From the NCBI GenBank assembly GCA_007224835.1, contig SRMA01025500.1:21870-85869 (forward strand): 64,000 nucleotides of DNA. Reading direction: 5' to 3'. The notes beneath the pieces were generated by a model. It made no database searches and was not told where the DNA came from. It saw nothing but the letters and a program-made list of their open reading frames with translations. How positions within the stretch are numbered: position 1 is the first letter of the stretch; each line of letters starts with the position of its first letter. The stretch comes from Danionella cerebrum. Its lineage: Eukaryota. Of the stretch, positions 1-64,000 are shown in pieces. The position numbers and the translations under genes are program-made.

Positions 1-94
1 ACAAAGGGGATCCAAGCAGATACAACAAGACTTCAGAGAAGAGGGAGGTCAGGTAGGCAGCAAATCTCAATGCTGGTTTGGTAACAGTCAGAAA

Positions 95-95
<1 letters not shown>

Positions 96-133
<38 letters not shown>
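96..133. repeat. (GA)n microsatellite, about 19 units
   Basis: Perfect gagaga... run read directly in the sequence. Confidence 0.9.
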
Positions 134-136
<3 letters not shown>

Positions 137-2355
137 TGGGGTTTCAGAAGGAATCACCCAATTAAACAGCAGTGAAAGAAATGATAAAGGAAGAACATGA
201 GGGAAGGAAAGACACCACAACAGACAAACAAGAGGAAAGACCTAACAAGTATATCTGCCTAGAAAACTGCAACTTTAATTTTGAATTGGTTTTAGTACAC
301 TATTTTTTCAAGTTTTAATTTGGAAAGATATTGAAATTCTTTTGAGTCTTCAGAAAAGAAATACTTCTGGACTATCCAAAAAGTCTCATTGTGAGATCCG
401 AATAATAACTGTGAAAGATTAAAAAAAGAGAACACTCAGTGGGAACTGGAGAATTATGCCATTTCTAAAAGAGTTGAGTCTTCTTTAAGACAATAATTGC
501 ATAAATCTGCATAGATCCAAGTCCCTCCAACAACGGACCATTTCAGTTCGCCGTTTACAGACTAAATTAATCCCCACAGTGAACTTTTAGTCATTTATGA
601 AACTCAGCTGCACAAATAATAATGATGGTTTCCCCCTCCACTGAACACATCTTTCAGATCAGGAAAAACTACAGAGCATAAATAGAAGAAAATAAACTAT
701 TTGCCATTTTCAGATTCAATTCAATTGAAGGGATGGATTTGGTCTGTACTTTTTGCGTTAATACGTTGAGGTCTTTGACCTAAGCGGGAATTATTAAATA
801 TGTTTAAGGTTTAACAGAGCTTTTCTGAATACAGAGCCACAGAATTAAGAAGCATGTCCCGTCAGGAGATAAAAAAAAGAGTTTAATGAGGTTTCAGATG
901 AGAGGTGCAAGATAAGAGTCACATAAAACACCCAAGTCCATGCCCATGCATCTGGTAATCCTGCCAAAGAACATAAACTGAGGGAAATGCTGGCCAGCAG
1001 AGCAACTGGCTCTTAAGAGCAGCTCTGAGACTATAATTAGACTAAGATCAAAGCAATAAAGTAGGCTACATTAGCTACATGTTATGCCTTTCTTGACACA
1101 GCTGAGTCAAATCATTATTCCACAAATGTAGGGATGCTTCTGTTTTTTCATTTCAGCAACACTTTCAAGCATAAGCCAATATTTTATTCACAACAGAAAT
1201 ATTTAAACAGAGAATGGTTCACTTGTGTGCACTAAACAAGCTCTTTTCACATTTGATACTAAGAATGGATCTTAAATAGTTGCGGTAGAGCTAACAAATG
1301 AAACAAAAAGCTAATTATTTAGAAAGATTAACTGGGTAAAGAAGTAGCAATTAACTGAGTTAGGCTCTTTAACGTGATTGATGTCAGGGAAGCGCTGAAG
1401 TTGCACAGAAATAATATGTAGATAAATTACAACTTGTACATTTGTAAACTGTAAGTTTTTTACGACAAGATTTTGTTATGAAATAGTCAACAGATGCCCA
1501 AAATCATGAGCAAATTGGTACTCGCACAGTGTGAACTACCCAAATGTTACCAACTGGTCATGAGGTTTTAAATATTTGGTCAGAGATTCTGGCTCATGAT
1601 GAGTAAAATGTGTTCTGACTTAAATAACATCTTGGATTACCAGCCGCCAATAAAAGAGCAACGTCCGGGGCAGTGGGAAGTTAGGAAGGAGTTACAGAGG
1701 CATAGACAGCAATGTCAACTAGATGACTAAAGCATGCAAACTTTGATGTTTGAAATCTTTTTTTAATGATACCAATGTTACAATGTAAATTAAACCATCC
1801 CCTGTGTCTCTACGATTTTTCCAAGCTGAGATAGAGATATGCCAAATCGCTCAGTTCCCACTTTCCTCACGTTCGCAAATGTGACAAATAAAAGTGCGAT
1901 TTTCTAAGCAGATCAGCAAAAATGAAAAATTTTCTCCCTCAGAGATAGCTGCATCATCCATCAAAAATATTCACTGACGCTTACAATAAGAGCTCAGGAA
2001 GGATTCCATGCATATCGCAATATACAAAAAGAGTCTGACTGGGAAAACTGCAAACAACTAAATGGTTTTAGCGCCCATACATTTCCAGATTTGTATGTAC
2101 AGAAATTCAGTTTTAGTTTAAGCCAGGTGCTGAACTGGCTTGCCTGCAGTGCAATTTTTAAACCTAAACCAGGCAAAAAGTGGTCAAAAGTACAAATAAA
2201 CTCAAATAACAAATAATTAACTATAATTAGTTATGAGCCACAAAGCTCAATGTTGAAAGTTCTGTATGTTTAAATAAAGTAGGTTAGCAAAAAAAATATC
2301 TTTAAAAGCATTTTAAAAGCAATATTCAAAGAATATTGTCGAGCAGGCTTCTTAA

Positions 2356-3089
2356 CACTTAGAGGTCCAGGGCCTTTTTGAGCGTTTTTGCTATATTACA
2401 TTTTCTCTAATAAATTACCTTAATAAATAAACAATATTAAAGCTTGATATAATTTTTAGTACAACCCCATCTTCTTTTTTATTTAGAAATATTTTTCTTT
2501 ACATTACCCAATAATTCCACAATAAACCAGAAAATGTACAAGAAAATAAAATTCTGACAGTTAAATTGTAATTTTTTTCAGTGCAAAACGTAAAAAAATG
2601 AACAATTTTATGTTTAACAAAAATCAAGCGTTTTCTTGTAAAATAAAAATTCACAAATCCCTCAAACAAGCAAAGACAATGATAAAAAAATGTGAAAATT
2701 GTATAAAAAAATGGGCGAACCTCTTCTATACCTTTTACACTGTTTCAAGCACGTTTTGTTCCATTGTGCTTTCTTTTGTGCCAGAACCATATCGCAGGTC
2801 TTGTACTTCCATTGGTTATCCCTTCTTTTCACTACTACATGGCACTAATGGCACCAATTTGGGGTCCGTAAAATGAAACTGAAAGACAATCGTGCATTTT
2901 CTGACATTTTAATCATCTTCCAAATTGAGTCATAACTCTTGTAATGTTAATTTAAATGCAAAAATATCAAAACTGATAACCAAAAGAAATTAAAAATGTA
3001 TTTAAAAATACAACAATAGCTGGGTTGCATTATTCCTACTTAATTCAAAACAGCCGCTGTGATTGGTATATGCACCGGTGCCTGCAGGG
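2356..3089. mobile_element. piggyBac-like non-autonomous element (MITE), copy 1 of 5, apparently complete and flanked by TTAA
   Basis: TTAA at 2352-2355 and 3090-3093. Terminal CACTTAGAGGTCCAGGGCC at one end and GCCTGCAGGG at the other. The same family (shared motifs 'tcttttcaccactagatggcac', 'ctgaaagacaatcg', 'cctttttgaaacctac') recurs at 17.8, 28.7, 34.8 and 51.8 kb. The best-preserved termini read CCCTTAGAAAGTCTGGGGCC, which resembles the canonical piggyBac end CCCTAGAAAGATA. Confidence 0.55.
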
Positions 3090-3171
3090 TTAACAGTTTT
3101 ATACTTGTGGCAAGAAACAAATTTGTTTCTTAATTGCTCATTTATCATGTTGTCTAAAGTCTTTGGTGAAG

Positions 3172-3893
3172 CAGGGCTCTAGACTAACTTTTTGCACTGG
3201 TTGCACTGGTGCGCCTAAATTTTTTTCTTAGGTGCACCAGCACAAAAGTTAGGTGCACCCAAATTTTCAACTGCATCACATTTAACACCGCATTTTCACA
3301 AGTTCACTTTTTTAGTTCTCTATTTATTATTTTTTTTAAATCACTGTCCATAGACAATATTGACTTGTAAATGATTAACTCGCGTAACATCATTGCTGTA
3401 CGTCGGGTTTACGTTCAAGCCATTTTTCTTCATAAGAATTATTTCGGACTTGAATTTAGTGAAGGGGAGTTCTTCTTTTGCAATATTGTAGGCAACGTTA
3501 AACTTAATTCTCATCTCGGCCTCGTCTGATCTGTTTGCAGCTGCCTGCCGCTGTAAAGGTAGTTCACATCGAACGTGGTTCGCGCGGTAAGCGCGGAGGG
3601 TTTCCATGTTAAGTCAATGCAAAGACGCGTTTGCGCGCGTCTGAGGCTTCAGCGGCGCGGTAAACGCGAATTGAGAGGCGCGCTTGCCGCGATAGGCGCG
3701 TATTGAGCCGCATGAATGGGTGATACGCGTGTTGTGAGCCGCGCGCAGGAGGCGGAGCGGCCGTAGACGGAATTTCGTTTTTTTTCCCACTCGAACGACG
3801 GGTCGCACCGGTGCAACCTTTGATTTTTTTTAGTCGCACCATTGAGAAATTTGGTCGCATATGCGACCAAATTGGTCGCACTCTAGAGCCCTG
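3172..3893. mobile_element. Non-autonomous DNA transposon with 12-bp TIR (cagggctctaga / tctagagccctg) and 5-bp TSD TGAAG
   Basis: Perfect 12-bp TIR at 3172-3183 and 3882-3893. Identical 5-bp direct repeats tgaag at 3167-3171 and 3894-3898. Subterminal repeats ggtgcacc / ggtcgcac are present at both ends. Internal 3600-3780 is a CpG-rich block unlike the surrounding AT-rich DNA. Confidence 0.7.
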
Positions 3894-4865
3894 TGAAGAA
3901 CTGGTTCCCATTACATTAGTCAAATAAATAAACAGAATTCAGGCCATGTACAGAAATACTACATTTAAAACAGGCTGAACTCATATTTGGTTCACATGAG
4001 TAAAACATCATTATCACGGAGGGTTATACGAGATGAGATCAAGTTATGGTATATGATTTTAACTACTAAAAGTATTGTAGTCTCCAAAAATGTAGCTTTA
4101 AAACTCATTAAGATGGATCTCCCAGGTCAGGACAGGCACTGTAGTCAGCGCCTCAGCTGCAGAGCGAAAAAAAACAAAACGGGTCTTTTAGTACAGACTA
4201 AAGTGGGGAGGGGGGCTACACTGCTTCCTGTGTGTGAGGGTGAGCAGCTGGTGGCACAGCTGTACTAGTCTGTATGTGCATTCGTGTCTGTGAGAAATTA
4301 ACTATATATACACAAGACTGGGACCCTGTTTTCCTGCTTGATGGGAAACACCCCACTGGAAGGACATGGGGAGGCAGCATACATAGATTTAATTAGATAC
4401 AGGAGCATTAGGGTAGTAAACAAGACATGACTAAAGCAGAGCTCAGCTCTGAGAGAGAAGCAGTGGATATCAGACGTTTTTCAGCAAACGAAAGCCTTGA
4501 CACAGTAAATTAATAATTGAAATTCTGTTTTGTTAAACAAGTTGTGACCGTGTTCAGTAGTGAACCAAATGTGAACGTTGGCTGATTGCAACATATAAGA
4601 CACTAAACATAAAAAGTTTAATAAACTATTCAATTATTGATGAAATGAAGTCCTTGCTTTATTCTCGGAGTAGAACATTCAAGAAAAATTACAAAAAAAG
4701 GAGGCTTCATGTTAAAAATAGAGGCTGCCCCTACTGGGATCCAACCGGCATCAATAATGTAACCGTGTCATGACGTCTTTGTTCTTACAAGTTGAGCCAA
4801 ATATACTTATATTATATAATCTATTTATATAATCTTAACTAATATACTTACCTGTAATTATTCAC

Positions 4866-9759: not shown

Positions 9760-10170
9760 CTTTCATTCTATTGTAATGTGTCCGCTCCCAAATGCTAAAT
9801 AATTCTGTATGAGCCTAATACTGAAAGATCTAGTTCTCTTTTCAAGTCCTTTTGTCACATGTCCACCTAAAACAATAAGATTAGTTCTAATTTCAAGTCC
9901 TTTCACTCTTTTGTCAAGTGTCCGCTCCTCAATGTTAACCGATAGCCATACGAGCCGGAAACCGGAAGGATTAGTTCTTTTTCGAGTCCTTTTTACACAT
10001 GTCCAAAGAAAACAGAAGATTGGTTTTTCGAGTCCTTTCACTCTTTCGTCGTGCATTCATTCCAAAATGTTAACCAATGCCATATGAGCCAGAAACCGAA
10101 AGGATTAGTTCTCTTTTTGAGTTCTTTTGTTACAAGTCCACAGAAAACAAAGTTTATTTCTTTCATTCGT
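9760..10170. repeat. Satellite-like tandem repeat, about 135-bp unit x 3
   Basis: Three successive units each contain 'gagtcctttca(c/t)tct...gtccgctcc..aatg(c/t)taa..' followed by 'gtcc(t)tttg..acatgtcca..aaaaca'. ORFs in both strands here are reading-frame artefacts of the repeat. Confidence 0.6.
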
Positions 10171-17600: not shown

Positions 17601-17799
17601 TTTCTGACAGCATTAACAAGAATAAGAAGCTACAGAAGCAAAACTCCATCCACTTTCAATGAGTCACTGACCTTTAAATCTCACCAGGTCTCAAGCTATG
17701 TCCAATAAACCGAGCAGAGTTCAGTTCACAATGGATCTAAAGGTTTTTTTCTATACCTTTCACAGGAATTAAATTTAACTTATTTCAAACGAATCTTAA

Positions 17800-18621: not shown

Positions 18622-18653
<32 letters not shown>

Positions 18654-18663: not shown

Positions 18664-20472
18664 AGGCCCTGGACTTCTCAAAGTTAATAATTTGCACAAC
18701 AATGAAAGAAGCTCCTGTAGAAAATGTTTCCTCTAGGTCTAGTACAATATGTTGAAACATTTTAAATCTTTTAAGTTTAAGTAGGGGAATGAAACAATAA
18801 AATAATGGAGAGTTCCGCATGAAGTTCATATATCCTTGTCAACTCGTACACATCTCACACCGGAAGATTTCGAGTTTAAGGGTATTGGCTATATGTGTGT
18901 AGGGGATAGGGGGGGGGTCAAGCTATTCTGTGTATGGCAGCAGTATAGAAGTGGGGGAGGGAGAGGCTTACTTAAGAGAGATTTGAAAAAGTGACGCACA
19001 GTGTATAAATAATTATAAGTTATAAGATGTATTCTTATGTGTCTGGTTTTTCTTTAAAACAATATTTGATAAAACAAAGCTATTGCTACAAATATACATA
19101 TTGATGCAGTTATGATTTAAATTATCTATTTTAACCGTACTATGTTCCAATGACTCCAGTCAGTTACATAAGCCTGCAAGACTTAGAACATAATGTGATT
19201 CAGCAAAAAAAACATTCCCTTAGTATCCAGGTCAGAGCTCTGGTCAGGTCTTCTATGTTTTTCTGTAACTGGGGATAAGCCTGAAGTAGCAACCAAAGAT
19301 AAATTCGAAGTAAAAACAGCCATGGGGGCAGATAGGAGCCTTCCAACCCAACCCCCTACTGTGCGTTTCCATTTTGTTGAGATCTAATCTGAAGCACTTC
19401 AAGCAAAGCACACACCTACAGTAAACACAAATACAGAGAGAGGGAACCAAAAATAAACCTCAGAGGGAAGACAACGAACACAGCCGATTCAAAATACAAC
19501 ACATTATAAGCTGATAAAGTAGTCTTGATAAGAAAACAATAGAAAAGTGACACACCCTCAGTAAACTTTATTGACCTCTCTGTTTGAACTCGAGGGATGC
19601 AATGTAAGCACAATTGTTTAGTTCACCACAAAAGTACAAGTGAGGATCCACTAAATAAATATAGAATCAAAGGCCTTCGTCCTCTGATATGCTCTGAATC
19701 TGCAGATATGCCTAAATAAATGCCCATGAATTAAATGCAACAGTATTAAGCATGCTAAAAGTTCAGTCCGTTCTCATACATTTTTAATGCAGAACTTTGG
19801 GATGAACATTAAAATGTTCAAATGGATAGAACATCCAAGAGGCTGACTTCAAGAACACACTTCATAATTAAACGCTGCATATTCTAAATAATGTGAGAAA
19901 AAAACAGGTTAAATGAGGGTATGTCGACTGGAATTCTGTCTTCCTCCTTTTTATATATTCAGTCAAACTTTTTCTGTTTCAAAATGTAAAAATGAACATA
20001 AAACGGCACGTGAGATTTCTCAATAATTGATACCGCTCTTTAGGTAATTTAAGAAAAAAAAACTACCAAGACATCTCATTCCCTTCTTAATTCTATCCTA
20101 CCCCTTATAATAAACTGCACTACTCTGTGTGAGAAATACCACTGACTAAATCACCTCAGATAAGAGTCAAGATATTCAAAGTCTTTGGCCTCTCAGAAAC
20201 TGAGAATATTTCTGCTAAACCAACAATCTGAAGAGTGCATACCATCTACATTTGCCACCACAGGACACAAATTCTGAAATTCTGAATGGGTACACAGCGA
20301 CTGAAAGTGTGATTTTTTATACTTTTATAATGCGTCATAAAACACCTCATTTTATTTGTTTGGAAAGAAATTTCTTTTCTTTATACTGATCTTATTTCAG
20401 CAGATTTGAATCTGTATGCGACAAACAAGGTTTTACATCATATTTAAAAGTCTTTGGAACTTCATAGTTTTA

Positions 20473-21198
20473 CAGTTGTGCTCATAAGATTTTGTACCCA
20501 GGCAATATTTTGGATTCCTTGGCCATTGTTCAAAAAAATCTGAATAAAAACTACGTAAATAAACTCTTGCATGAACTGCTTGTTTGAGTTGTTCAATGAT
20601 ATTGAGGTCAGGAGACTGAGATGGCCACTCCAGAATCTTCACTTTGTTCTGGTGTAACCAATGACAAGTGGACTTTGTGTTTTGAATTGTTGTTGTGTTC
20701 GAATGTTCAGCTTCTGGGCTAATGATGCACATTTTCCTTTGGTATCCTTTGAGAACATTCTGCATTTATACTGCCATCATTTTTGACACACATCCCCAAA
20801 ACATCAGTGACACGCCTCCATGTTTCACAGTGGGAATGGTGTTCTATTCATGTTGAGTCCTCTCCAAATGTACCGTTTATGGTTTTATCACAAATAACTT
20901 TGTTTCAGAAGTTTGGAGGTGTGTTTCTGAGCTGTTTGGCGTATTGTAAACAGGCTTCCTTGGATACCTTTTAATGTCCCTTTCCAATGCATCATTGGAT
21001 GAAAAAAGCAAGGGTCTATCAGGAGTTGATTACAAGCAAAGAGGTCACAGGTGAGGCGAGTTCCCTTTACTCGAACCCTTTTGTGTCTGCACCAAATTTA
21101 CTGAAAGTCATTTGGATTGTTTGACATAATGGCTTAACCCTACCACTAACTTATGAGTGGAAGAAATCCAAAAATTTGTAAACGTATGACCACAACTG
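20473..21198 (-). mobile_element. Tc1-like transposon, internally deleted copy with TA-flanked CAGTTGTG termini
   Basis: Termini TA|CAGTTGTGCTCATAAGATTTTG (20471-) and CAAATTTTTGGATTTCTTCC...CACAACTG|TA (-21200). Internal minus-strand frames give VKHGGVSLMFWGCV and KVKILEWPSQSPDLNIIEQLKQAVHAR, both signature Tc1 transposase motifs. Confidence 0.65.
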
Positions 21199-27899: not shown

Positions 27900-28480
27900 T
27901 TTGGGGAGCGAGTTGAGCTAGAGTTGTGACCGCGTCGCGTACACCTGTTCGGACCGCGTGCGAGAGCGACCGACTCCACGAAATTCAATTTCTCCCGGGT
28001 CTAATGAATTCCAAGCGGCTACGACGAATATTCTGCCCGTATTTGTTAAAAGACGTTTTTAGTATTTAATAAAACCTTTAGGTCCTCCGACAGATAAAGT
28101 CCTCCGTAGACGAGAGAGCCCGATGCTGTGAGTTCTCCGCTCCGTCGCGTCGCTCTCCTGCAGCCCACGCGTGGTGGAGGAGTGAGTCCGGTTTGACCAG
28201 CTCCCCCTCAGATAAGCGGCTCGCTGCGGTCCTTGAAACTTCCGTTATCTTTGCAGGACGGGTTCGAGGAGACGTACGCGTTCGCCGTGCGTTGCAGAGC
28301 AGTGCGGTGATGCTTCCGTGCGCGCGTTCACCTTCAGCGCTATTGTCACACGCGCGACAAAAGGCAGAAGGCGGCCCTGCCCATCCCGTACTTTCAATCA
28401 CGAGCAGCCTCCGAGGAGGAGACCACAAGGGAAATCCTGCCTAAGACCACTGCGGTGGCAGGGAGTTCAACCCCTCAAAG
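27900..28480. promoter_or_regulatory. CpG island, candidate promoter / 5' end of a host gene
   Basis: GC- and CpG-dense block (gaccgcgtcgcgtacacctgttcggaccgcgtgcgagagcgaccg...gcccacgcgtggtgg...gacgtacgcgttcgccgtgcg...) that contrasts sharply with the flanking AT-rich DNA. It is not part of any repeat copy seen elsewhere in the window. Confidence 0.5.
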
Positions 28481-28746
28481 TCTTACATTCTAAGACAAGT
28501 GGTAATGGTCCACAATTTGAAAAGAACAATTCAGCTCTAGAAATGTAATTTTTGTAAATCTGTTCACTCCTAACTGTTTAAGTTTCTCTTGTTTTGTTTA
28601 TGTCGTCGCGTGGCTTAGGTGAAAGTTGTTAAACATGGAACTTGAACTAGTAACCTATTTCCGTTTGCCTTGCTCGTTCTCATTCAAAGATACTCTAGTC
28701 TAGGCTCAAACTAAACCCCGCCCCCATGACGTAACATCACACTTAA

Positions 28747-29544: not shown

Positions 29545-29799
29545 TGGGCAGCACGGTGGCGCAGTGGATAGCACTGCGGCCTTCCAGTTAGAAGGTTGCT
29601 GTTTCAAGGTTTGCTGGTGACCTTCCTGCAAGTAGTTTGCATGTTCTCCCCCGTTTCTCTGGGTTCCCCAACAATCCCAAAAACTTGCATGTGAGTGTGT
29701 GTTGTCCTGCAATAGACCAGTGATGTGAGCTGGAGATAGGCCCCAGCAGACCCCCGTGACCCCGAAAGGGAATAAGCGGGATGGAAAATGAATGAATGA
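29545..29799 (+). mobile_element. tRNA-derived SINE, full-length copy
   Basis: Head 'gggcagcacggtggcgcagtggatagcactgcggccttccagttagaaggttgctgtttcaaggtttgctggtgacc' with tRNA-like A/B boxes. Then 'gtttgcatgttctccc', then core, then 'gaaaatgaatgaatga'. Confidence 0.7.
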
Positions 29800-31689
29800 T
29801 TGATAAAGTACTGGTGTGAGTCCATCCTGGGTTTGTTCCTGGTGTTTTAAAAAGAAGATGGGTAATGCTGAATAAAGCATCAACTTTGCCATATGGTCAT
29901 TCACTTAACCAAAAAAGTGGCGGTATGGTGGTGTTGGTTATTCTAGCAAGCCACTGTTAATAATGCGGCTAAAAGGTTACACGTTTTAACGTTTTGGTTT
30001 TAAAGGTTTGGTAACAAAGGTTACAAGAGATATGACACTATTAACAAGTGACACGATGTGCAATCATCTTTCAGTTTACGGACTCCAAATCGGTGCCATC
30101 AGTGCCATCTTGGGATGAAAACCCTTGGAAGCACAATACCTGTGATATAAGACAATTTAATTCTCAGAATTTTTTTTAACAATTTCTTGATTGTTTTGAA
30201 CTAGAAAAAGTATATCAAGCACTGACACAAAAAAAACTGTTTAAAAATAAAATTTCTTAGAGCAAATTCGTGAAATGCTCAAAATGGCTGCAGACTTGCC
30301 GTAATAACTTGACTGAACAAACGAGATGTTATAGATGTCTCTCTGACATTACTTTTATCTCTTGATGTATTGCAAAACACTAAACCATCTCTGTTTACAT
30401 CAACAACTGACAGCCGTCTTAAGTTATATGTAACATTTAATAATGTGATAGGATTTGGATTGATTTTGTTAAGCATCATCATTGTTAAGTGCCTTGCTAA
30501 AAGACCTAGCGATGCCGCCTGGAGCCAAAAAACTCAATTTCCTGGGCAAAAGCTTTACTCGGGTTCCCAACTCAGCAATTCAAGCTTCCTGTTTATAGCA
30601 TAATAACATATGTATCATTTATAATGCAGTATGGTTGTCATAAACATATAAACCCTTATCTTTTCAAATGCACAGATTGTTTTAGTTTAGTTTGTTCCTA
30701 CACAGAATTCACACATATGCAGCTACATTTATAAATATTTATAATATAGCTGTCCCGCTGTAACAGGATGAGTGGAAAGCAAGCACTGCAGCTAAGATGT
30801 ACTGTTACATGGTTTAATTCACTCAAGAAACAAGGAGTGAGGAGTACAGTGCCTCAAAAACCAATCATTGACAAAAAGAAACTGGGTGCAGAGGGACTAA
30901 ATACACATGGAAATCAAGACAACGAGGGAGTGACCGGATGTAAACAATGCGCTAACAGGTGGGGAACTAATGACCATGTGAAAACCAGAGACACTAAGTT
31001 CTGACAGTACCCTTGGCATGGCATCAGAGACATATCCAGCTGTATCTGCACCACTCTCAAAACACCAGCATGAGACTGGTGGGGTGGAGTCAAACAATTA
31101 TAATGCTCGTCACTACAGAATGTACTGTGGTGACACAAAGTTCGTAGGTTTGTGTGAGTTTCTTCACGCAGACATCTCCAGACCGTTCTAATGCTGGTGT
31201 CCCTGAAGTGATAATCACGTGATGTGGCTGCAGCTGGATTTTAATTTGTCCAAGGAGTGGGTTTGGGGCACAAGGGAACACACAGTCTTTGGGTGGGGGC
31301 AGTTCAAAGAAAAAGCTGGCATTTCAGAGGTTGAACCGACACCTGGTGGGTTGCTGAAAACCGATGCTCTGCCTAGGAGTTACTCAACTGAGCTGACACC
31401 AAGAACCCGGAGGGCTGTGAAGGTGCATGCATGATCTTTTTCATGGCGACTTAGGGTGTGGGGGTAGTGGGGTGGGAGATGGAGTTCATTCAAGCCTCTA
31501 TGACAGACTTAAGCCGGTCTAGACTGTGAGGTGACAACCTCCGAAAGTGGAGCTATAGGGGCGAGGAAGGATTCAAGACTGGAGGATCAAGGCTGTAGGG
31601 TCATGGACAATGGTAAAGCATGGGGACATGTTTGCATGTCCAAAAAGAGAACATAGAGAGAGGGTTTCCAATCTTTTAGTTTGACAGCA

Positions 31690-35237: not shown

Positions 35238-35243
35238 ATATTT

Positions 35244-38699: not shown

Positions 38700-38900
38700 A
38701 ATTTTACTTGTTTTGTGACACGGTGTGGAGCGCTCTGATCATCACCACCCCCAGATGACATTTACATTTATGTATTTAGCAGACTCTTTTATCCAAAGCG
38801 ACTTACATTGGGAGTAAACATCAAGCAGTTTGGTACAAAGTGGATTGATCAGAAGACATACACATAGAACACTTTCAAGCTAGTACAGAAAATGAATTCA
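38700..38900 (+). repeat. Teleost SINE-like repeat head ('gacatttacatttatgtatttagcagac..tttatccaaagcgacttaca')
   Basis: I recognise this motif as a very widespread fish interspersed repeat. No termini are defined here. Confidence 0.3.
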
Positions 38901-39079
38901 AATCAGTGCTTCAGAGGGTTTTTTTTTTAAGTTAAGTTAGTAAATGCGATGATATGTGTAGAAGGGGGGAAGCTGAGTCGGAGATGGGATCAGTCTTTAA
39001 AGTCATGAGGCGATGCCTCCTGAAACATGTTCAATTAATTAAACAATCAGTTTAATCTGCATATAGGAATATAATCTGT

Positions 39080-39675
39080 ATATTTTTACACCGGCACCAT
39101 CGAGAGCGTCCTGACTGGAAACCTCACTTCCTGGTTTGGGGATAGCACCATGCAGGACCGGCGAGCCCTATAGAGGGTGGTGCGTTCAGCTGAGCGTACC
39201 ATCCACACCGAGCTCCCAGACCTGCATGACCTCTATAACAAGCAGTGCAGCACCAGAGCGAGGAAGATTGTGAAGGGCCTCAGCCATCCTAACAATGGAA
39301 TCTTCTCACTGTTGCGTTCAGGAAAGCATTTCTGCTCCTTGAAGGCAAACACAGAGAGAATGAGAAGGAGCTTCTTCCCGCACACCATTCGGACTCTAAA
39401 CAGGGACACACGGGACACACAAAGACTTTCTATCCTCATTACTCATTTGGTTTGCACAACCGTTGACTTGAAACAACACTTTAGTGAGCATCTCTCACAC
39501 ACAAATCATTGTGTTTTTGTATTTTTATTTCATACCTGTTTAATTTTCTTATTATTTACATTTTATTTATTTTCATTTCTATTTTATCTATTTCATCCCT
39601 TACAAGTTAGACAGTCATGCAATATATTTCACTGCACGTCATACTACAAATAAAATCTGAATCTGAATCGGAAAC
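39080..39675 (+). mobile_element. 5'-truncated LINE copy: C-terminal end of ORF2 plus 3' UTR ending in a (TCTGAA)n-like tail
   Basis: Translation gives ...FYTGTIESVLTGNLTSWFGDSTMQDRRAL.RVVRSAERTIHTELPDLHDLYNKQCSTRARKIVKGLSHPNNGIFSLLRSGKHFCSLKANTERMRRSFFPHTIRTLN. I recognise this as a conserved C-terminal block found at fish LINE 3' ends. The sequence ends 'caaataaaatctgaatctgaatcgg'. Confidence 0.6.
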
Positions 39676-45042: not shown

Positions 45043-46666
45043 ATTTCTCAATGTATTCTTATCTTACAGGATTTGTTTCACACCTGCCCAAAACATTTGC
45101 ACAGTACTGTGCATTAGTTTTGGACATGAGTGTTGTCAGAGCCTGTGAATCAGGTTTCTGTATTTCAGAAGTAGCCTGTTGACGGAGGGCGTCTTTAATA
45201 AGTAAAGGGCTCATTCTCTCCCTCACCATTGGATCTTTGACCGCGTCATCCAACCTTCTTCCTGTTTGTTTTGTAGCAGATTATTTTCTCTTTCCATCAA
45301 TGATGGGATTTATGGCTCTTTGGATGGAGCCGGACCTTTTGGATCCGTCCACTTTAAAGAGCCGTTCAAAAAACTGGCTCAATTTGCTCCTTCAATTTTT
45401 GACTTTTAAGAAACCAGCATGGGGTACATTTTTTTATTCTGGAAATAATCACAGGAATTATAAGCTGAGATTCTGTACCAATTTTTGAGTTTGAAATATT
45501 TGACTATTGCTTTATTTGACACATACTTATCCTTTGTATTAAATGTATGTGTGTAAAACTTTGACTTGTTATTTAATGAAACACCTAATTACTCATAAAG
45601 AACAAAGACGGCTTCAATAAAGTTTCACGCCAAAACCTTAAAGCAAAATTTCCACATAAGTACATTTTTAACAATACTGAAAAACTAATTAACAATATTT
45701 TAAAATTATATAAACCCAATAACAAAATAAGTAAAAAAAATACATACTACTATTTCCAAAATGATAAAACAGTTCCAGTCTTTATGGTGTCTCTCTTTTT
45801 TTTCTTTCTGCAAATTCGAATTGAGAAACACAAGTGCTCTCACTTTGGAATGTTTGAGGCGATTTCTCCTCTTTGTGAGTATTTTTCCAGTTTTGGAGAA
45901 AATTGTTCCACAACACAAAGCATTTAGCCACTAGTTGACTAAGCCTTGGATACACAGGTACCCGACTTTCCCACCACTTCAAAGGGTCTTTATTCTTAGG
46001 AACAAGTGGCTCCTCCATGACAGCGTCTGCTGTGGGGTTGCCAAGGTTCCAGCTTCCTGGTCATAGAGGTATACATCTACACATTTATCCCTCCTCCCCC
46101 CAGAGGAGAACAGCTCCCAATCAAACGCGACTTGGCTCCGATCGTTCATATTAATGAGACGTTCAAAAGATTCGATTCGTTTGTGAACGTCCCAACACTA
46201 CTTTCCATCTTGGAGACTGCAACCCTAGAAAGTTTTCCCTCAGAATCTCTTACCAACAGAACAATCGTCCCATCAACGTAACCAGCAGAGGAATGGTTTT
46301 TCCATCAAAAACAATTGATGGGTCTTTGAAGCCATGCGTGGAATGAATGAGTTCACCTTAAATAACAGTGTTTTACATGAGAAACACCTACCGTAATCAT
46401 TTATAGATTTCCATGTAATGGAGGCAAGTGGAAAGCTTACAAAGTGCACATCCAGATGCATATCCTCCCTTCCTAAATAAAAAAAACATTGAATCATCTT
46501 GAGAGAAATGGTAATCTGAGGTTCTTCTCATATGTAAACGTAAGGCTGTTTTTCAGAGGAAATGTATTAGATGATCAGAGATGAGAGGGTGGGCTGTACT
46601 TGTCACCTCTGAGATGTAATAGAGCAAACATCTTTTGAGTCATTAGGCTTAAGTAGTCATTGCTGA

Positions 46667-47379: not shown

Positions 47380-47513
47380 TGTTTAAGTAAACATCTCTTG
47401 AGCGACGTCAGGTTGTCCAGAACGCTGCTGCAAGGCTTTTAACCAAATCTTCCAGGTATTCATGTCACCCTGAAATTAATCCAGCTGCATTGGCTCCCCA
47501 TCCATCTCCGAGT
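47380..47513 (+). repeat. 5' part of an older interspersed repeat, split by the LINE insertion
   Basis: '..catctcttgagcgacgtcaggttgtccagaacgctgctgcaaggcttttaacc...ccagctgcattggctcccca' ends in the left copy of the 17-bp TSD. It continues at 50642 once the LINE is removed. Confidence 0.5.
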
Positions 47514-50500
47514 CTTCTTCTTCTACTTTCGGCTGTTCCCAGTTTAGGGGTCGCCACAGCGAATCATCCTTTTCCACCTAACTCTGTCTTCAGTATCCTC
47601 TACTCTTGCACCAACCATGTCCTCTTTCAGCACATCCATATATCTCGTCTTTGGCCTTCCTCTTGACCTCTTTCCTGGTAGCTCCATCTCCAACATCCTT
47701 CTACCAATATAACCACTATCCCTCCTCTGCACATGTCCAAACCATCTCAACCTGGCCTCTCTGACTTTGTCTCCAAAACAACCAACCTGAGCTGTCCCTC
47801 TGATGTGCTCGTTCCTAATCTTGTCCATCCTAGTCACTCCTAAACTGAACCTCAACATCCTCATCTCTGCTACTTCCAGCTCTGCCTCTTGTCTCTTCCT
47901 CACTGCCACAGTCTCCAACCCATACATCATAGCTGGTCTCACTACTGTTCTGTACACCTTTCCTTTGATTCTTGCTGACACTCTTCTGTCACACAACACC
48001 CCTGACACTTTTCTCCACCCACTCCAACCTGCCTGCACTCGTCTCTTCACCTCTTTTCCACACTCCCCGTCACACTGGACTGTTGACCCCAAATACCTAA
48101 ACTCCTGCACCTTCTTGACCTCATCCCCCTGTAACCTCACTGTTCTATTTCCCTCCCTCTCGTTCAAACACATGTATTCTGTCTTGCTGCGACTGACTTT
48201 CATTCCTCTTCTTTCTAGAGCTGACCTCCAACTTTCCAGGTTTTCCTCCACCTGCTCTCTGCTCTCACTACAAATTACAATGTCATCTGCAAACATCATT
48301 GTCCACGGCGATTCCTGCCTGACCTCATCTGTCAACCTGTCCATCACCATAGCAAATAAGAAGGGACTCAAAGCTGATCCTTGATGTAGCCCCACCTCCA
48401 CCTTGAACTCCTTTGTCTGACCTACAGCACATCTCACTGCTGTCTTACTTCTCTCATACATATCCTGAACTACTCTGACGTACTTCTCTGCCACTCCTGA
48501 CCTCCTCATACAGGACCATAGCTCTTCTCTTGGCACCCTGTCATACGCTTTTTCTAAATCCACAAAGACGCAGTGAAGCTCTTTCTGACCATCTCTGTAC
48601 TTCTCCATTAACAATCTCAGAGCAAAAATTGCATCAGTAGTGCTCTTCCTGGGCATGAAGCCATACTGCTGTTCACAAATATCCACTTCCCTTCTTAGCC
48701 TAGCTTCCACTACTCTTTCCCAAAGTTTCATTGTGTGGCTCATCAACTTTATGCCTCTGTAGTTGTTACAACTCTGCACATCACCCTTGTTCTTAAAGAT
48801 TGGTACTAGGACACTTCTCCTCCATTCCTCAGGCATCTTCTCACTCTCTAAAATCCTGTTGAATAACCTAGAAAGGAACTCCACTGCTGTCTCTCCTAGA
48901 CACTTCCACACCTCCACTGGTATGTCATCTGGACCAACAGCCTTTCCACTCTTCATTCTCCCCAGAGCCTTCCTCACCTCATCCTTTCTAATCTTTTCAA
49001 CTTCCTGCTCTACAGTATTCACCTCTTCCTCCCTTCTTTCCCTTTCATTCTCCTCATTCATCAACTCCTCAAAATACTCCTTCCATCTTCTCAGCACACT
49101 CTCCTCACTTGTTAGCACCTTTCCATCTCTATCTTTAATCACCCTTATCTGTTGCACATCCTTCCCATCTCTGTCTCTCTGTCTGGCTAATCTATACAAT
49201 TCCTTCTCGCCTTCCCTCGTGTCTAACCTGGCATACAACTCATCATATGCTTTCTGTTTGGCCTTTGCCACCTCCCTCTTCACTCTGCGCTGCGATTCCT
49301 TGTAGTCCTGTCTACTTTCTTCAGTCCTTTCAATGTCCCACTTCTTTTTAGCTAGCCTCTTCCTCTGGATGATGTCCTGTACTTCCTCATTCCACCACCA
49401 TGTTTCTTTATCTTCTTTCCTCCTTCCAGCTGACACACCTAGCACCTTTCTTCCTGTCTCCCTGATCAATTCTGCTGTAGTTTCCCAGTCATCTGGAAGC
49501 TCTTCCTGACCACCCAAAGCCTGTCTCAGCTTCTGTCTGAATTCTTCACAATCTTCTTCCTTTTTCAACTTCCACCACTTGGTCTTCTTTTCAATCTTTC
49601 GTCTTCTCTTCTTCCTGACCACCAGAAACATCCTACACATCACCATCCGATGCTGTCTGGCTACACTCTCCCCTACCACTACTTTACAGTCTCTGATCTC
49701 TCTCAGATTGGCTCGTCTACAAAGGATGTAGTCTACCTGCGTACTCCTCCCTCCACTCTTGTAGGTAACTCTATGTTCCTCCCTCTTCTGGAAATAAGTA
49801 TTAACTACAGCCATTTCCATCCTCTTGGCAAAGTCCACCACCATCTGTCCTTCTAGGTTCCTTTCCTTAACACCGTACCTGCCCATCACCTCCTCATCAC
49901 CTCTGTTGCCCTCGCCAACATGCCCGTTGAAATCTGCTCCCACTACTACTCTCTCCCCTCTGGGAACACTCTCAATCACCTCATCCAGCTCACTCCAAAA
50001 TCTCTCCTTCTCTTCCAACTTACAGCCTACTTGTGGAGCATAACCACTCACTACATTCAACATCACCCCTTCAGTTTCTAACTTCAAACTGATCACCCTG
50101 TCTGACACTCTTTTCACCTCTAAAACATTCCTCACAAACTCCTCCTTCAGGATCACTCCTACCCCATTTCTCTTCCTATCCACACCATAGTAAAACAGTT
50201 TGTATCCCCCTCCAATACTACGCCCTTTGCTACCCTTCCACCTGGTCTCCTGCACACACAGAATATCTACCTTTCTTCTCTCCATCATGTCCGCCAGCTC
50301 CCTACCCTTCCCTGTCATTGTACCAACGTTAAGAGTCCCTATTCTCAGATCTACACTCCTGCCTTTCCTGTTCTCTTTCTGTCGACGAATCCTTCTCCCT
50401 CCTCTCCTTCTTCGACAAACAGTAGTCCAATTTCCAGCGGCACCCTGTAAGTCAACAGCACCGGAGGCGGTCGTTGTTAACCCGGGCCTCGACCGATCCG

Positions 50501-50641
50501 GTATGAAAATCGATTTGGTGACTCGCATATTTGGTTTTGGCATATTTTACGCCGGATGCCCTTCCTGACGCAACCCTCTCTATTTATCCGGGCTTGGGAC
50601 CGGCACAGAAGTCACTGGCTTGCAACCCCTGAGGCTAGATT
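47514..50641 (-). mobile_element. Full-length non-LTR retrotransposon (single-ORF APE+RT, RTE-clade-like), about 3.13 kb, with 17-bp TSD
   Basis: Single 999-aa ORF with a 98-nt 5' UTR and a 30-nt 3' UTR ending in a (GAA)n tail ('..gtagaagaagaag'). Direct repeats cccatccatctccgagt (47497-47513) and cccatccacctccgagt (50642-50658). Removing the element rejoins one continuous repeat sequence. Confidence 0.85.
47544..50543 (-). CDS. LINE polyprotein: N-terminal AP endonuclease (EEP fold) + reverse transcriptase, 999 aa, no internal stops
   Basis: Endonuclease motifs: LNVGTMTGKGRELADMMERRKVDILCVQETRW, VVGADFNGHVG, TQVDYILCRR. RT motifs: PIFKNKGD, YGFMPRKSTTDAIF, HCVFVDLEKAYDRV, GLHQGSALSPFLFAMVMD, MMFADDIVI (FADD box). 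ATG at 50543-50541, stop TAA at 47546-47544. Confidence 0.85.
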   Translation of the reverse strand: MPKPNMRVTKSIFIPDRSRPGLTTTASGAVDLQGAAGNWTTVCRRRRGGRRIRRQKENRKGRSVDLRIGTLNVGTMTGKGRELADMMERRKVDILCVQETRWKGSKGRSIGGGYKLFYYGVDRKRNGVGVILKEEFVRNVLEVKRVSDRVISLKLETEGVMLNVVSGYAPQVGCKLEEKERFWSELDEVIESVPRGERVVVGADFNGHVGEGNRGDEEVMGRYGVKERNLEGQMVVDFAKRMEMAVVNTYFQKREEHRVTYKSGGRSTQVDYILCRRANLREIRDCKVVVGESVARQHRMVMCRMFLVVRKKRRRKIEKKTKWWKLKKEEDCEEFRQKLRQALGGQEELPDDWETTAELIRETGRKVLGVSAGRRKEDKETWWWNEEVQDIIQRKRLAKKKWDIERTEESRQDYKESQRRVKREVAKAKQKAYDELYARLDTREGEKELYRLARQRDRDGKDVQQIRVIKDRDGKVLTSEESVLRRWKEYFEELMNEENERERREEEVNTVEQEVEKIRKDEVRKALGRMKSGKAVGPDDIPVEVWKCLGETAVEFLSRLFNRILESEKMPEEWRRSVLVPIFKNKGDVQSCNNYRGIKLMSHTMKLWERVVEARLRREVDICEQQYGFMPRKSTTDAIFALRLLMEKYRDGQKELHCVFVDLEKAYDRVPREELWSCMRRSGVAEKYVRVVQDMYERSKTAVRCAVGQTKEFKVEVGLHQGSALSPFLFAMVMDRLTDEVRQESPWTMMFADDIVICSESREQVEENLESWRSALERRGMKVSRSKTEYMCLNEREGNRTVRLQGDEVKKVQEFRYLGSTVQCDGECGKEVKRRVQAGWSGWRKVSGVLCDRRVSARIKGKVYRTVVRPAMMYGLETVAVRKRQEAELEVAEMRMLRFSLGVTRMDKIRNEHIRGTAQVGCFGDKVREARLRWFGHVQRRDSGYIGRRMLEMELPGKRSRGRPKTRYMDVLKEDMVGARVEDTEDRVRWKRMIRCGDP

Positions 50642-51035
50642 CCCATCCACCTCCGAGTGCATTTTATAAAATAGAGCTCTTAAAAACCAAGCACTGGTCT
50701 ATATAAAAGGCCTCGTGCTGCCCTACACTCCCAGCAGGTCTCTGAGGTCATGTGACCAGGGTTTTCTGGTCGCCAAGAGAACCCGGTTAAAAATGAAAGG
50801 TGACAGTGCCTTTGCAGCACTGGCTCCCTCTCTCTGGAATCCCCTTCCTCTCAGCCTCAGATCCGTTGACTCAGTGTTTTCTTTTAAAAGACAGCTAAAG
50901 ACACATCTTTTTAAAATGGCTTTTTACTAATTGTTTTATATTCTCTATTCTGTGTTTTAATGTGAAGCATTTTGTGATCTGTTTATCTCGAAAGGTGCTA
51001 TATAAATAAATATATAATTATTATTAGTTACTCTG
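50642..51035 (+). repeat. 3' part of the interrupted older repeat (ends '..aaggtgctatataaataaatatataattattatta')
   Basis: Begins with the right copy of the TSD and continues 'gcattttataaaatagagctcttaaaaaccaagcactggtctatataaaaggcc...ctggctccctctctctggaatcccc..ctctcagcctcagatccgttgactcagtgttttcttttaaaagacagctaaagacacatc'. I recognise this motif from fish interspersed repeats. Confidence 0.5.
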
Positions 51036-59829: not shown

Positions 59830-60420
59830 CATGGTCCTTTTATGTTTGCAGATGTAGTTTTCTCACATCCTTCTGTCTCTTCGCGTGGATGCTATTCCAT
59901 CCATTCCAGTTCTTCTTGTTCTTATAAGATGGAGATAGTTCTTAATGACTTTGGCTTTGTGTTTGGAGTCATTGCATAAAACATTTTGGGGTCATTCCAA
60001 ATGAGCAAGGCACCACCACCATGCTTCACTGTTGCCTGCAGACACTCATTATTGTACCTCCCTCCTGCCCTTCTTGACTCATCAGTCCAGAGTACGTGCT
60101 GCCCTTTTTCTGCACATCAATACCAGTCCGTTTTGGCTGCACCTCGTCAATGAACACCACTTCTCCAAACAGTGTACAAGTTTCTGCAAGTTTTGAGCTG
60201 ATGACACAACTAGACATCTTTCGTTTTCAAACAGATGATGAGCTTATTGTATCTTTCAACTGCTCCACAAGTTTCCACTGCCGACCACTTTGTCTACGAT
60301 CCTCAACTTCTTCAAAAGAGCTTGAACAGCACATATCGAAACCTCAGTCTGCATTAAAAAGGTTTGTCAGGGAGAGACCTTGTTGATGCAGCATAATGTA
60401 GAGTTTGGCTGTTGCTCAGC
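59830..60420 (-). mobile_element. Tc1-like transposon fragment (transposase mid/C-terminal remnant)
   Basis: Minus-strand frames give ...SVCRQQ.SMVVVPC (VKHGGG motif from 'caacagtgaagcatggtggtggtgcc') and further Tc1-like blocks (SSKLAETCTLFGEVVFIDE.., KRTGIDVQKKGSTYSGLMSQ). Confidence 0.6.
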
Positions 60421-61779
60421 TTTAAACCTCCTATATAAAATATATTATATGTTATGTTCAGGTAGGGACTCCTGAACCCTTCCTCCTCACTTACAACTAT
60501 CATTCTTTGTCCCGTCCTTTTAACACCCTCCTGTCCTGATGTAATTAATGCCCATGGGAAATATAAATAATAAATAACTACATCAATTCACTGCTTTCAT
60601 CCAGAGGTGGAACACACCACAGCAGATGTTCAAAACAGTCCAGCTCAAGCGAAGCCACCCCCAATGTGGTGGCTTTTGAGCAGGATAGGACAAGGCACAG
60701 CTGTAGATAACCCAACACAGCTGTGTCTGTTTCAGTTCAATGTTGATGATCATTAGCAGCTGTTTAATATAATAGTTGGATCACCTGACTATAATCCAAC
60801 AACATCCCTGACTTTGTGTTCATACAGGAATTGCTGGAAGTTTGAAGGCTAGTAACCGTAGTAACAGCAAAAAATGATGCTCTCTTTGTATATTGTAAAG
60901 TTACCAAAATCCTCAACCATCATTTATATTTTATAAAGCTTTTGTTTCATACTTTTCTAAAAGTAGGGTAGTACAAAACGTAACCGTACTGTACATTTGA
61001 AAGAGTTACAGAGCCACTTGTGTGTCTCTAATGTAAGAAGTTGTATGGGGAAGAGCGATGGAATTGAGATTAATTTCACCGTGGAGTCGGCAGGACGTAT
61101 GGTTAGGAGTTGATGGTTTGTCCACACAAACACAGAAAGAATTTTAACAAAGATTCATGGTGATCTTACAGCATGTCCTTGGAGCTTTCCAAAATGGTGA
61201 GACAGAGTTTTGTAAACCACATAATCCAACTTGTTTGGTCAGGGCTCATCAAAAATCAAACAGAACTGTGTTAACCAACATTTAGCAGCATACTCATTAT
61301 AAAGCTGTCGAGAAGAATGAGTGATGAAGTTTGCATTTTTCATTCAAATCTGGTTTTTACACACTTTGTACAACAACTGCCTTAAAGTGTTTAAAATGAT
61401 GTTGATTTGTGAACCAATTTTAAAGACTGACCATTTCTTTTGGATTGAGAATCTTATTGATTCTTGACGGCCATTTTTTGCAGTTGCAGTTCATTTTACT
61501 TGAAGTAATTAGTTTTAAATAAATGAGCCATTCATTAGTACAGAAACAGCTGCTAGTGTTTTATGAGGACAGCTTCAGTAATCTGTGAATTAACTGAATC
61601 AATATTTTTCAGGGTTGGAGCCCAACCACACTGATGATATAAATATACAAAGTTGTTTGTTTTATGACACTTCTCTTCAATCTAACAAATCACCCGGGCT
61701 ATGAGTATCATTTCATCTATTACACTTTATTAGTGCTCGTTAATCAGCCAATAATATAGCAACACCTCAATGCATTTTG

Positions 61780-62795
61780 GCTTGTAGACAAGGGCAAAAT
61801 GAGCATCTGAATGAGGAAGAACAGTGATTTAAGTGATTTTGAACGTGGCGAGCTGAAATGATATTTCACACAACCATCTACGAGAACGGTGAGAAAAAGA
61901 AAATATCCAGTGTGCGTCAGTTATCTGGCTGCGAATGCCTTGAGGTCAGAAGGGAATGGCCAGATTGGTTTGAGCTGATAGAAAGTAACTCAAGTAACCA
62001 CTGGTTACAATCAAGGTCTGCAGAATAAACAAAACGTTGAACCTTGAGGCGGATGGGCTACAGCCGCAGCAAACCACACTGGATGCCACTCCTGTCAGCT
62101 AAGAACAAGTAACTCACTCTACAATTTGGACAAACTCACCAAAACTGGACAACAGAACATTGGAAACATGTTGCCCGGTCTTGATTTTTGCCGCGAAACA
62201 TGAATGGAAGAATCAGATTTTGGCATCAACAACATTAGTTCAAAATGAGCTTCTGATTGTTGTTGCTGACAATATCCATCGCTTCAAGACCATCTTCTGA
62301 TGGCTACTTCCTGCTGCTCCATGTGGTGTAATAGTGGCCTAGTGGATAAGGTGACTGACTGGAGATCAAAAGGTAGCTCCACTGGGAATCGAAGGTGGGA
62401 TGAGTGTTGAAACTGTGGTGGCCTTGATCAAGTCACCAGTTTCCCCACAGCTCTCCTGGCGCCACAGCTATGGCACTTGGATGGGTGAAATGCAGAGCAC
62501 AAATTCCTCGTATGGGTTCCTCAAAAGCACAAATAATCTCAGACTGGTGATGACGATGAGTTCACCGTACTCAAATATTCTCCACAGTCACCAGATCTCT
62601 ATCCGGACAAGGAATTTTGGGATGTGGTAGAGCGGGAGATCTGAAGCAAATCTGCAGCAACTGCATGATGCGATCATGTCGATATGGAGCTAGAGGAGTC
62701 TCTGAGGAATGTTTCCAGTACCTCGTTCCATTCTGAAGGTAAAGAGGGGTCCAACCTGGTACTAGCAAGGTGTACTTAATAAAGTGGCCGGTTCG
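61780..62795 (+). mobile_element. Tc1-like transposon, roughly 1 kb degenerate copy (same family as 11870-12305)
   Basis: Frames give LSDFERGELK (Tc1 HTH), then ...HEWKNQILASTTLV..., then WPPQSPDLYPDKEFWDVVEREI and SLRNVSSTSFHSEGKEGSNLVL (compare Tc1 WPAQSPDLNPIEHLWD...AVLKAKGGPTRY). Ends 'ggtgtacttaataaagtggccgg' like the 12.3-kb copy. Confidence 0.65.
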
Positions 62796-64000
62796 TTCTG
62801 TAAACGTAACTTATCTGCTGTACGTTTCTGGGAAGATGAGCAAAATTCTAATTCGTTCCCCAACACGAAGGTTGTGACACAAAACAGCTGAAAACAAAAG
62901 ATGAAAACAAAAACTAACGTTGGGGCACATTTCAGGGGGGGAGGGGTGAGCAAAGTTGACGAGCTACAGCTGGCTTGATTGTTGATTAGAGTCAGCTGTG
63001 GCTTGTTATTCTACGTGTCAGGATAATTTAGCTCCTCTTTATTTTCTTTTTTGTATTATGTTGTTTTATTCTAAAAACCTAGAACAAAAATTAAAATTTA
63101 AGTTCATTTTAAATTATAATTACCCGTACATTTTAAGGCTGAAATCAATGTTTAATCAACCCCATTATGATGGTTAAACAGAATTCTAATTTAAAATAAA
63201 TGCTAACATAAAACAACACACTTGGCTTAATAACCAGAAATCAATGCATAAAATGCCACTTTCAAAACAGTGATATTAAATAAAATAACCCAGAGTGTAT
63301 TTTGATTTGAGATTTACAGGAAGTTTAACACTCTAGATAACGTTTTTTAGATATTAACATTGTCTGCTGAAGACTGTAACCTGAACCATTTCCTTTATTT
63401 TCTTGAATGGTTTCTTGAATTTTGATTCACACGCAGCTCTGGCTGAATCACTTTTTGAAAAGGCGTTTTTGAATAGTTGATGAAGGTTACTTCGCATGTT
63501 TGGTTTTGGAGAAAGAAGCCATTACAAAACCAGATCAGGTAAGCATTTCTATTATGTTTTTTGTTATAAGGCAAGTGCATGTGATGCACTATAAATAATC
63601 ATGGAGTCAAATTAATAAATCTGAGCCTAATTTCAATTCTGCAATAAATCCGCTGCTGTTTTATTATACTCCCATTGTTAACAATGATCACCAGAGACGT
63701 TAATTTTTTAAGTCAAAAAGTATCTGAGCAATTTTGCACTTCTATGCTGCTCTTTAAACATTTGCAGCAGTGAGAAAAAAAGCAGTTTTATGCAAACTCA
63801 TCTCATTAATTCAGTGCTGATCACACCCCCTTTCCCTGGGTTTTTCCCTGGGTTCACATCCATCCATCCATCCTCTTCACCTACCCATTTTGGAATTACA
63901 CTTCCTTTATTAGGCTTCTATGCCTTAAGCTGGCTTGCTGTTTTTCTCCATGAGGCATTTCTTCTGAAACTAATCATACTGTGTTGGACGTTGAGGCTAC

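Follow-up and report, generated by a model that had tools for sequence, protein, structure and literature searches.

A LINE of RTE type headed by a predicted twister ribozyme in gene-poor DNA of very probable teleost origin

We analysed a stretch of 64 000 nt (contig SRMA01025500.1, positions 21,870 to 85,869 of the forward strand), referred to below as the window. The main subject of this report is a retrotransposon, a long interspersed nuclear element (LINE), situated on the minus strand at 47514..50641; at its 5′ end the LINE carries a motif predicted to fold into a self-cleaving ribozyme of the twister class. An earlier note, made from the sequence of the window, had assigned this DNA to a teleost fish and had seen no novel gene system in it.

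The LINE and the motif at its 5′ end

The element is a full-length non-LTR (long terminal repeat) retrotransposon of the RTE type, 3128 bp in length, with boundaries set by its target-site duplication. It has an intact open reading frame (ORF) of 999 aa at 47544..50543 on the minus strand, the sole ORF >250 aa in the window. In this ORF Pfam detected the domains Exo_endo_phos (1e-07) and RVT_1 (6e-39), at residues 70-277 and 587-822, i.e. an apurinic-type endonuclease (APE) and a reverse transcriptase (RT). The two domains identify the ORF as a retrotransposon, as had been said of it in the earlier note. The layout is simple: a 5′ untranslated region (UTR) of ∼98 nt, the single ORF and a 3′ UTR of 30 nt ending with the (GAA)n-like sequence GTAGAAGAAGAAG. 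A 5′ UTR of only ∼98 nt leaves no room for an ORF1; the element, which has no RNase H either, consists of the N-terminal APE followed by the RT. Elements of the RTE clade are characterized by a single APE-RT ORF, a length of ∼3.2 kb, a very short 3′ UTR that terminates in a simple repeat and a flanking duplication. Rex3 PCR (polymerase chain reaction) primer sequences had no match.

The LINE is flanked by a target-site duplication of 17 nt. Its 5′ copy, ACTCGGAGGTGGATGGG (50642..50658, minus strand), stops precisely where the ribozyme is predicted to cleave, while the 3′ copy, ACTCGGAGATGGATGGG (47497..47513, minus strand), follows directly after the 3′ UTR; the two copies are identical at 16 of 17 positions. 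The last bases of the 5′ copy make the 5′ strand of a weak helix, P1. The duplication places the LINE at 50641-47514; with its intact ORF, it is a full-length copy that was inserted recently into an older repeat. The element was aligned from end to end (1-3128) with two elements from the catfish Hemibagrus guttatus (L001 and L006) with nucleotide identity of 85%.

The twister-P1-like motif was found at 50570..50646 on the minus strand in a permissive Rfam scan (RF03160, full model 1-68; 52.2 bits, E-value 8.7e-9 over the window). It is situated on the same strand as the ORF, takes the first 72 nt of the LINE and ends 26 nt before the ATG. The model places the cleavage between 50642 and 50641, exactly where the 17-nt duplication stops; the LINE would then begin at the predicted cut site of a twister ribozyme. 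The core GCCGGUCCCAAGCCCGGAUAAA..GAGGG is intact, with the segments AA, GCC, GCCGGUCCCAAGCCCGG, AUAAA and GAGGG all present, and the window copy has the conserved twister nucleotides of L1, L2 and L4 as well as the A located 3′ of the scissile bond.

We compared the motif with seven related loci: two from H. guttatus, one from Silurus asotus, one from a Logan contig and three from ENA metagenome contigs. A twister motif was present upstream of the LINE coding sequence in all seven, with scores of 41.6-53.1 bits. Homology among the LINE copies begins at the AA of the cleavage site, with nothing in common upstream of that A. The Logan contig represents one whole element and starts one base before the cleavage site. 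In H. guttatus L001 a perfect duplication of 16 nt, GATTTATGCCACTGAA (16/16), adjoins the cleavage site; L006, inserted in an ATTTT repeat, has the same geometry with an ambiguous duplication.

With a covariance model based on ten copies we found 105 instances in the sequences searched, only one of them in the window; 102 distinct sequences were analysed. The fraction of paired cells was 87% in P2, 89% in T2, 90% in P3, 92% in its distal part (P3b), 95% in P4, 92% in T1 and 53% in P1, while in controls with a slid partner strand it was 27-42%. Cells changed on both sides numbered 90 versus 34 ± 6 in shuffled alignments. Compensatory changes were seen in P2, P3, P3b, P4 and T2; the pairs of T1 were never changed on both sides, which makes this helix uninformative for covariation. 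In a hand-checked alignment of ten sequences P2 appeared as UCUA/UAGA, CCCA/UGGG, UGCA/UGCA and CCAA/UUGG, the third pair of P4 as G-C, A-U and U-A, and T2 changed from G-C to A-U. The covariation across the family supports the motif seen in the window.

Just 3′ of the ribozyme (50515..50572, minus strand) there is a conserved box, AGGAAGGGCAUCCNNCGUAAAA, invariant both in the fish copies and in metagenome elements that otherwise differ downstream. A small hairpin predicted in the box by RNAalifold uses the 3′ strand of P1 and has one covarying pair (C-G, U-A, A-U); this is a weak indication that a hairpin might follow the ribozyme. Searching JGI metagenomes for the box sequence AGGAAGGGCATCCNNCGTAAAA yielded at least 120 loci (L008-L127; contigs from Ga0056108/126/133/135, Ga0209259/458/459/782 and others), most of them with a twister core directly upstream. 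In the metagenome twisters P4 reads CCUG/CAGG and P2 reads CCAA/UUGG. A recognizable endonuclease/RT protein was observed downstream in only 10 of the 86 metagenome loci with enough sequence (27-44% identity); thus, many of these elements may be non-autonomous and ribozyme-headed.

Related ribozyme-headed elements and a proposed mechanism

The same arrangement of ribozyme and LINE was shown experimentally for Perere-3, an element of the RTE clade from Schistosoma mansoni (Liu et al., NAR 2021, PMC8501958). As in Perere-3, the twister motif heads a LINE with a single endonuclease/RT ORF, and the duplication adjoins the cleavage site, supplying an imperfect 5′ strand of P1 (the condition of the ‘T-variant’ in PMC8501958). 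The cores are near identical: CCG GUCCCAAGC CCGG (A/G)UAAA ... GAGGG UUG(G/C). On the other hand, the fish family resides in a vertebrate host, its P2 and P3 sequences differ, and it has the downstream box AGGAAGGGCAUCCNNCGUAAAA, while no such box is mentioned in PMC8501958. The fish family is known from its sequence, and its likeness to Perere-3 is one of arrangement and of ribozyme core.

Ribozymes resembling that of the hepatitis delta virus (HDV) head retrotransposons of the R2, RTE and L1Tc types (PMC6765202). They share with the proposed system co-transcription from upstream, self-cleavage by which the element RNA obtains its 5′ end, and translation without a cap (PMC6765202), but belong to another ribozyme class, with a double-pseudoknot fold; since HDV-like ribozymes cleave at the very first nucleotide, they need no flanking strand.

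Twisters as such have been predicted in fish genomes since 2014. In a 2024 study (PMC11662667) the discovery set of 2014 is summarized as including one fish, and many fish twister candidates are reported to be active in vitro. The window motif is of the same class and comes from the same host group, and probably belongs to the population described there. The genomic context and function of the fish twisters are not given in the parts of that study consulted here, whereas the window motif is tied to a LINE family, to element boundaries and to duplications. In the literature, of which our coverage was incomplete, we found no paper linking twisters to LINEs in fish.

We infer transcription, cleavage, translation and current activity of the element along the following lines. 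The LINE, having no evident promoter of its own, would be transcribed by read-through from upstream. By cutting this transcript between G50642 and A50641, the ribozyme would set the 5′ end of the LINE RNA, which is expected to be uncapped and to start with AAUCUAGCC. The uncapped RNA would be translated into the endonuclease/RT protein, and target-primed reverse transcription would copy the RNA to its extreme 5′ end. As the copying would reach the RNA 5′ end, new full-length copies should start at the A of the cleavage site and be flanked by the duplication, with the upstream duplication copy providing a new, usually imperfect, 5′ strand of P1.

One could speculate further that the twister and the hairpin/box make up a 5′ module that is both ancient and obligatory in a widespread lineage of RTE-type LINEs, distributed in teleosts, in flatworms (Perere-3) and in at least one further animal host, represented in metagenomes, and that the module trims the read-through transcript and aids cap-independent translation. 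We consider this a tentative proposal, with somewhat less than an even chance of being right. If true, it would give a role to most of the twisters in fish genomes and a marker of full-length, potentially active LINEs in vertebrates. The observations made here already suggest a purpose for many fish twisters and extend to vertebrates a partnership of twister and retrotransposon functionally studied in one case, the flatworm Perere-3; the extension is based on position, as duplications adjoin the scissile bond in each of two species, and on comparison (covariation). It should be mentioned that the Rfam gathering threshold hides twisters of this kind.

Origin and gene content of the window

The G+C content of the window is 39% (0.34-0.47 per 2 kb). 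The observed/expected (o/e) ratios of dinucleotides are 0.45 for CpG, 1.27 for TpG, 1.24 for CpA and 0.70 for TpA; this is the profile of a CpG-methylated vertebrate genome. AT-richness and CpG depletion, both mentioned in the earlier note, are thus evident, while its single CpG island turned out to be three CpG-rich patches, at 3401-4000, 27801-28600 and 50201-50900.

Only five ORFs in the window are ≥150 aa, and three of these belong to one element, one in sense and two in antisense orientation; operon-like ORF arrays are not present, as had been stated before. We ran Pfam on all 532 stop-to-stop ORFs ≥45 aa outside the LINE. The scan returned one DDE_3 fragment of the Tc1 type, a hAT dimerization domain in two frames, one Ribosomal_L37ae match and six weak matches (LIFR_N, PI4K_N, 7TM_GPCR_Srw, Paxt-1_C, DUF7043 and NDH2_C; E-values 0.002-0.008), a number expected by chance for 532 queries. 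Among the 532 ORFs we accepted none as bearing a domain outside transposons. The Ribosomal_L37ae match, in the ORF at 2565-2873 on the plus strand, had a score of 28.2 bits with a curated cut-off of 21.9. We rejected it as a compositional artefact: identity to human RPL37A was 20% with E-value 0.48, one CxxC pair is absent, and the ORF is inside an interspersed repeat with five copies. The lysine-rich sequence has probably triggered a false match to the Pfam model.

A scan for host exons by codon-usage log-odds, with a zebrafish-like table, gave scores only in the LINE and in the CpG-rich patches; hence neither Pfam (ORFs ≥45 aa) nor codon usage detected host exons in the window. ARAGORN predicted no tRNA genes in the window, and no Rfam family reached its gathering score there; the Rfam matches to SCARNA7 (E-value 0.068, on a TG repeat) and mir-31 (E-value 0.82) were discarded as chance ones.

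For the LINE protein we found 2455 homologues with E-value ≤ 1e-20. The best 120 of them have 56-89% identity, mostly 82-89%, and every named one is from a teleost; the named relatives at 85-89% come from H. guttatus (the majority), S. asotus, Pangasius djambal and Oryzias latipes, the O. latipes matches being members of a 342-member cluster. The named matches are biased by the annotation of Hemibagrus, made with no repeat masking, and due to this database bias the LINE matches do not assign a fish order. For the ORF of 90 aa at 3344-3613 on the minus strand we found 48 homologues, those with a species name being again from teleosts: Metynnis hypsauchen, Aldrovandia affinis and Serrasalmus rhombeus. 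Exact-match look-ups of the LINE protein and of the product of a 232-aa ORF returned no recorded protein. The nearest named relatives of the transposons are mostly catfishes and characiforms. The teleost reading is supported by the fact that, for each of two independent transposon proteins, the closest relatives bearing a species name are all teleost. Megablast searches of positions 1-25000 against plasmids, 25001-50000 against Escherichia coli genomes and 39001-64000 against phages produced no match.

The protein of the LINE family is 85-89% identical across the window, catfishes and medaka (P0081, O. latipes; P0073, H. guttatus), and the DNA of the window LINE is 82-83% identical to contigs from a Tara Oceans sample and a sequencing run (L002-L004). 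Such unusually high identity across distant lineages hints at horizontal transfer or strong constraint.

Taken together, the data make it very probable that the window is gene-poor nuclear DNA of a teleost, a mosaic of decayed transposons with one young, intact RTE-type LINE headed by a twister-type ribozyme. In other words, this is ordinary fish DNA, to which the ribozyme-headed LINE is a real, if modest, addition. The earlier claims of teleost rather than prokaryotic DNA and of no novel gene system are borne out, the former by the teleost-only named relatives of two unrelated transposon ORFs together with the vertebrate CpG signature, the latter by the Pfam scan, with its transposon fragments and chance-level matches; any new system called from the ORFs of the window would be an artefact.

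Several observations weigh against parts of this conclusion. The twister score of 52.2 bits is under the RF03160 gathering score of 67.2. In the window copy the scissile bond is preceded by G instead of U, and P1 is composed of an A-C mismatch and the wobbles U-G, G-U and G-U. Because the pair counts come from a model-fitted alignment, they are biased towards the structure, and 92 of the 105 sequences are metagenome contigs found via the downstream box, mostly from one source. The assignment of the LINE to the RTE clade is based on its architecture. Finally, outside the LINE there are 37 stop-free frames ≥100 aa versus 16 ± 4 in first-order Markov simulations; the longest of these extra ORFs, with 246 aa (32591-33328), passes through G+C-rich copies of a short interspersed nuclear element (SINE). 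We attributed the excess to transposon remnants, G+C-rich SINEs and patchiness of G+C rather than to genes; still, with such an excess of open frames some small host exons could have escaped the scans.

It is possible, with a chance clearly below even, that the window also holds a part of a host gene, for instance a promoter in the interval 27.9-28.5 kb together with small minus-strand exons, overlooked by the scans; this would be compatible with the reading given above. The second CpG-rich patch (27901..28500) has G+C of 0.51-0.56 and CpG o/e of 1.0-1.4 and is devoid of transposon hallmarks: we found no convincing terminal inverted repeats around it and no protein-like ORF in it. Downstream of the patch and close to it, at ∼27790-27832 on the minus strand, there is a short signal-peptide-like ORF, MDIKWFVTAFVVMG, with a GTAAGT donor of consensus sequence behind it; nearby, at 28715-28735, there are a GC box and the sequence TGACGTAA, similar to a cAMP response element. 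The patch and the short ORF are possibly a host promoter and first exon. Yet, no Pfam domain of a host gene was found in the ORFs ≥45 aa, and the codon-usage scan was empty outside the LINE and the CpG-rich patches.

We regard it as unlikely that the twister motif is a non-functional relic or a look-alike, and that the constant 5′ end of the LINE is due to transcription start at an internal promoter, not to cleavage. All eight copies do score under the Rfam gathering threshold, and the window copy has a weak P1 and, at position -1, a G in place of U. But every core nucleotide is retained, compensatory changes are present in P2, P4 and the pseudoknot T2, and the element boundaries in two species coincide with the predicted scissile bond; as to the poor P1, it is expected under the Perere-3 model, and such variants cleave both in vitro and in vivo (PMC8501958).

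It is very unlikely that the DNA came from a non-teleost eukaryote, another vertebrate or an invertebrate, sharing its transposons with fish by horizontal transfer. The LINE is unusually conserved (amino acid identity of 86% between medaka and the window, and of 85-89% to catfishes), and the ribozyme with the downstream box occurs in metagenome contigs of unassigned host as well; therefore, transposons alone are imperfect taxonomic markers. Against this origin, the LINE, the hAT-like ORF, the tailed SINE and the L2-type tail indicate fish independently of each other, and no named non-fish species was among the best matches.

The reading of the window as a prokaryotic, viral or other microbial locus with an undescribed gene system could draw on the 37 long stop-free frames, but it is next to inconceivable, and effectively refuted already, given that the single ORF >250 aa encodes a eukaryotic LINE protein, that the 532 other ORFs give only transposase fragments in Pfam, that CpG is depleted in the vertebrate manner, that plasmids, E. 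coli and phages gave no match and that the longest extra ORF runs through SINE copies.

Other repeats

Self-BLAST matches cover 9.5% of the window, with none in a shuffled control; when single-copy elements recognized through protein or RNA homology are included, repeats amount to at least ∼17% by this library-free count. The repeat classes are those of a typical teleost landscape: tailed SINEs, Tc1, hAT and L2/UnaL2-type tails are all present. Among the classes listed in the earlier note, tailed SINEs, Tc1-like and hAT elements and LINEs were recovered. Its piggyBac-like elements were not: the DDE_Tnp_1_7 domain is absent from the 532 scanned ORFs, a result that covers coding copies, as non-autonomous ones were not searched for.

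The tail GAAAATGAATGAATG was found at 8 sites (with up to two mismatches) versus 0.49 expected, a 16-fold enrichment, and none of 100 shuffles reached 8. Aligned with each other, the sequences upstream of the tails form a single SINE family, conserved over ∼150 nt in its 3′ part. The best-preserved copy, with the GAAAATGAATGAATG tail, is at 29552..29806 on the plus strand; other copies or fragments are at 4865-4986, 25924-26029, 26607-26877 and 40022-40074 (plus strand), at 32950-33264 and 52092-52319 (minus strand) and at 31759-31855. The head, claimed earlier to be derived from tRNA, has sequences similar to RNA polymerase III boxes (A-box-like TGGCGCAGTGG; B-box-like GTTTCAAGG/GTTCAAGGC), yet neither ARAGORN nor Rfam, with E-values up to 1, gave a tRNA match.

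An element of 721 bp (3173..3893, minus strand), delineated by sequence reading, has terminal inverted repeats CAGGGCTCTAGA ... TCTAGAGCCCTG, perfect over 12 nt (CAGGGCTCTAGA); it contains the 90-aa ORF mentioned above and accounts for the first CpG-rich patch. The CpG-rich, undecayed interior suggests a recent insertion. A hAT insertion is expected to produce an 8-bp duplication; since the flanks share only TGAAG, the class of this element, with its hAT-like termini, is uncertain. A frameshifted remnant of the C-terminal part of a hAT transposase is located at 45709..46060 on the minus strand (Dimer_Tnp_hAT, 26.1 and 21.6 bits in two overlapping frames, cut-off 21.4).

A remnant of a Tc1/mariner transposase at 20436..20969 on the minus strand (DDE_3, E-value 5e-4) matched in tblastn the Tc1 part of protein P0100 (30% identity, 1e-13) and has a common end repeat of 62 nt (D8). 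Two more Tc1-like fragments, at ∼12054-12304 and ∼62540-62792 on the plus strand, were recognized by the motif WPxQSPDLN only. Another LINE, unrelated to the first, is represented by a 3′ coding fragment at 39078..39420 on the plus strand (tblastn to the C-terminus of protein P0080, 46%, 1e-9). An L2-type LINE/SINE 3′ tail, with a stem-loop similar to that of eel UnaL2 followed by ATGTAAATGT, is at 38767..38818 on the minus strand; its RF00436 score of 47.7 bits (E-value 3.4e-6) is below the gathering score of 55.

An interspersed repeat that we left unclassified (families D1-D3, seen in self-BLAST as well) has five copies, at 2453-3087, 17788-18491, 28823-29283, 34779-35245 and 51834-52088, with identity of 61-84% and a common segment ...CCATATTACAGGTTTTGTACTTCC...CACCACTAGATGGCAC. 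A minisatellite at 9808..10156 consists of 2.5 units of 135 bp with 77% matches. The microsatellites, described earlier as long, are modest in size, 32-44 bp.

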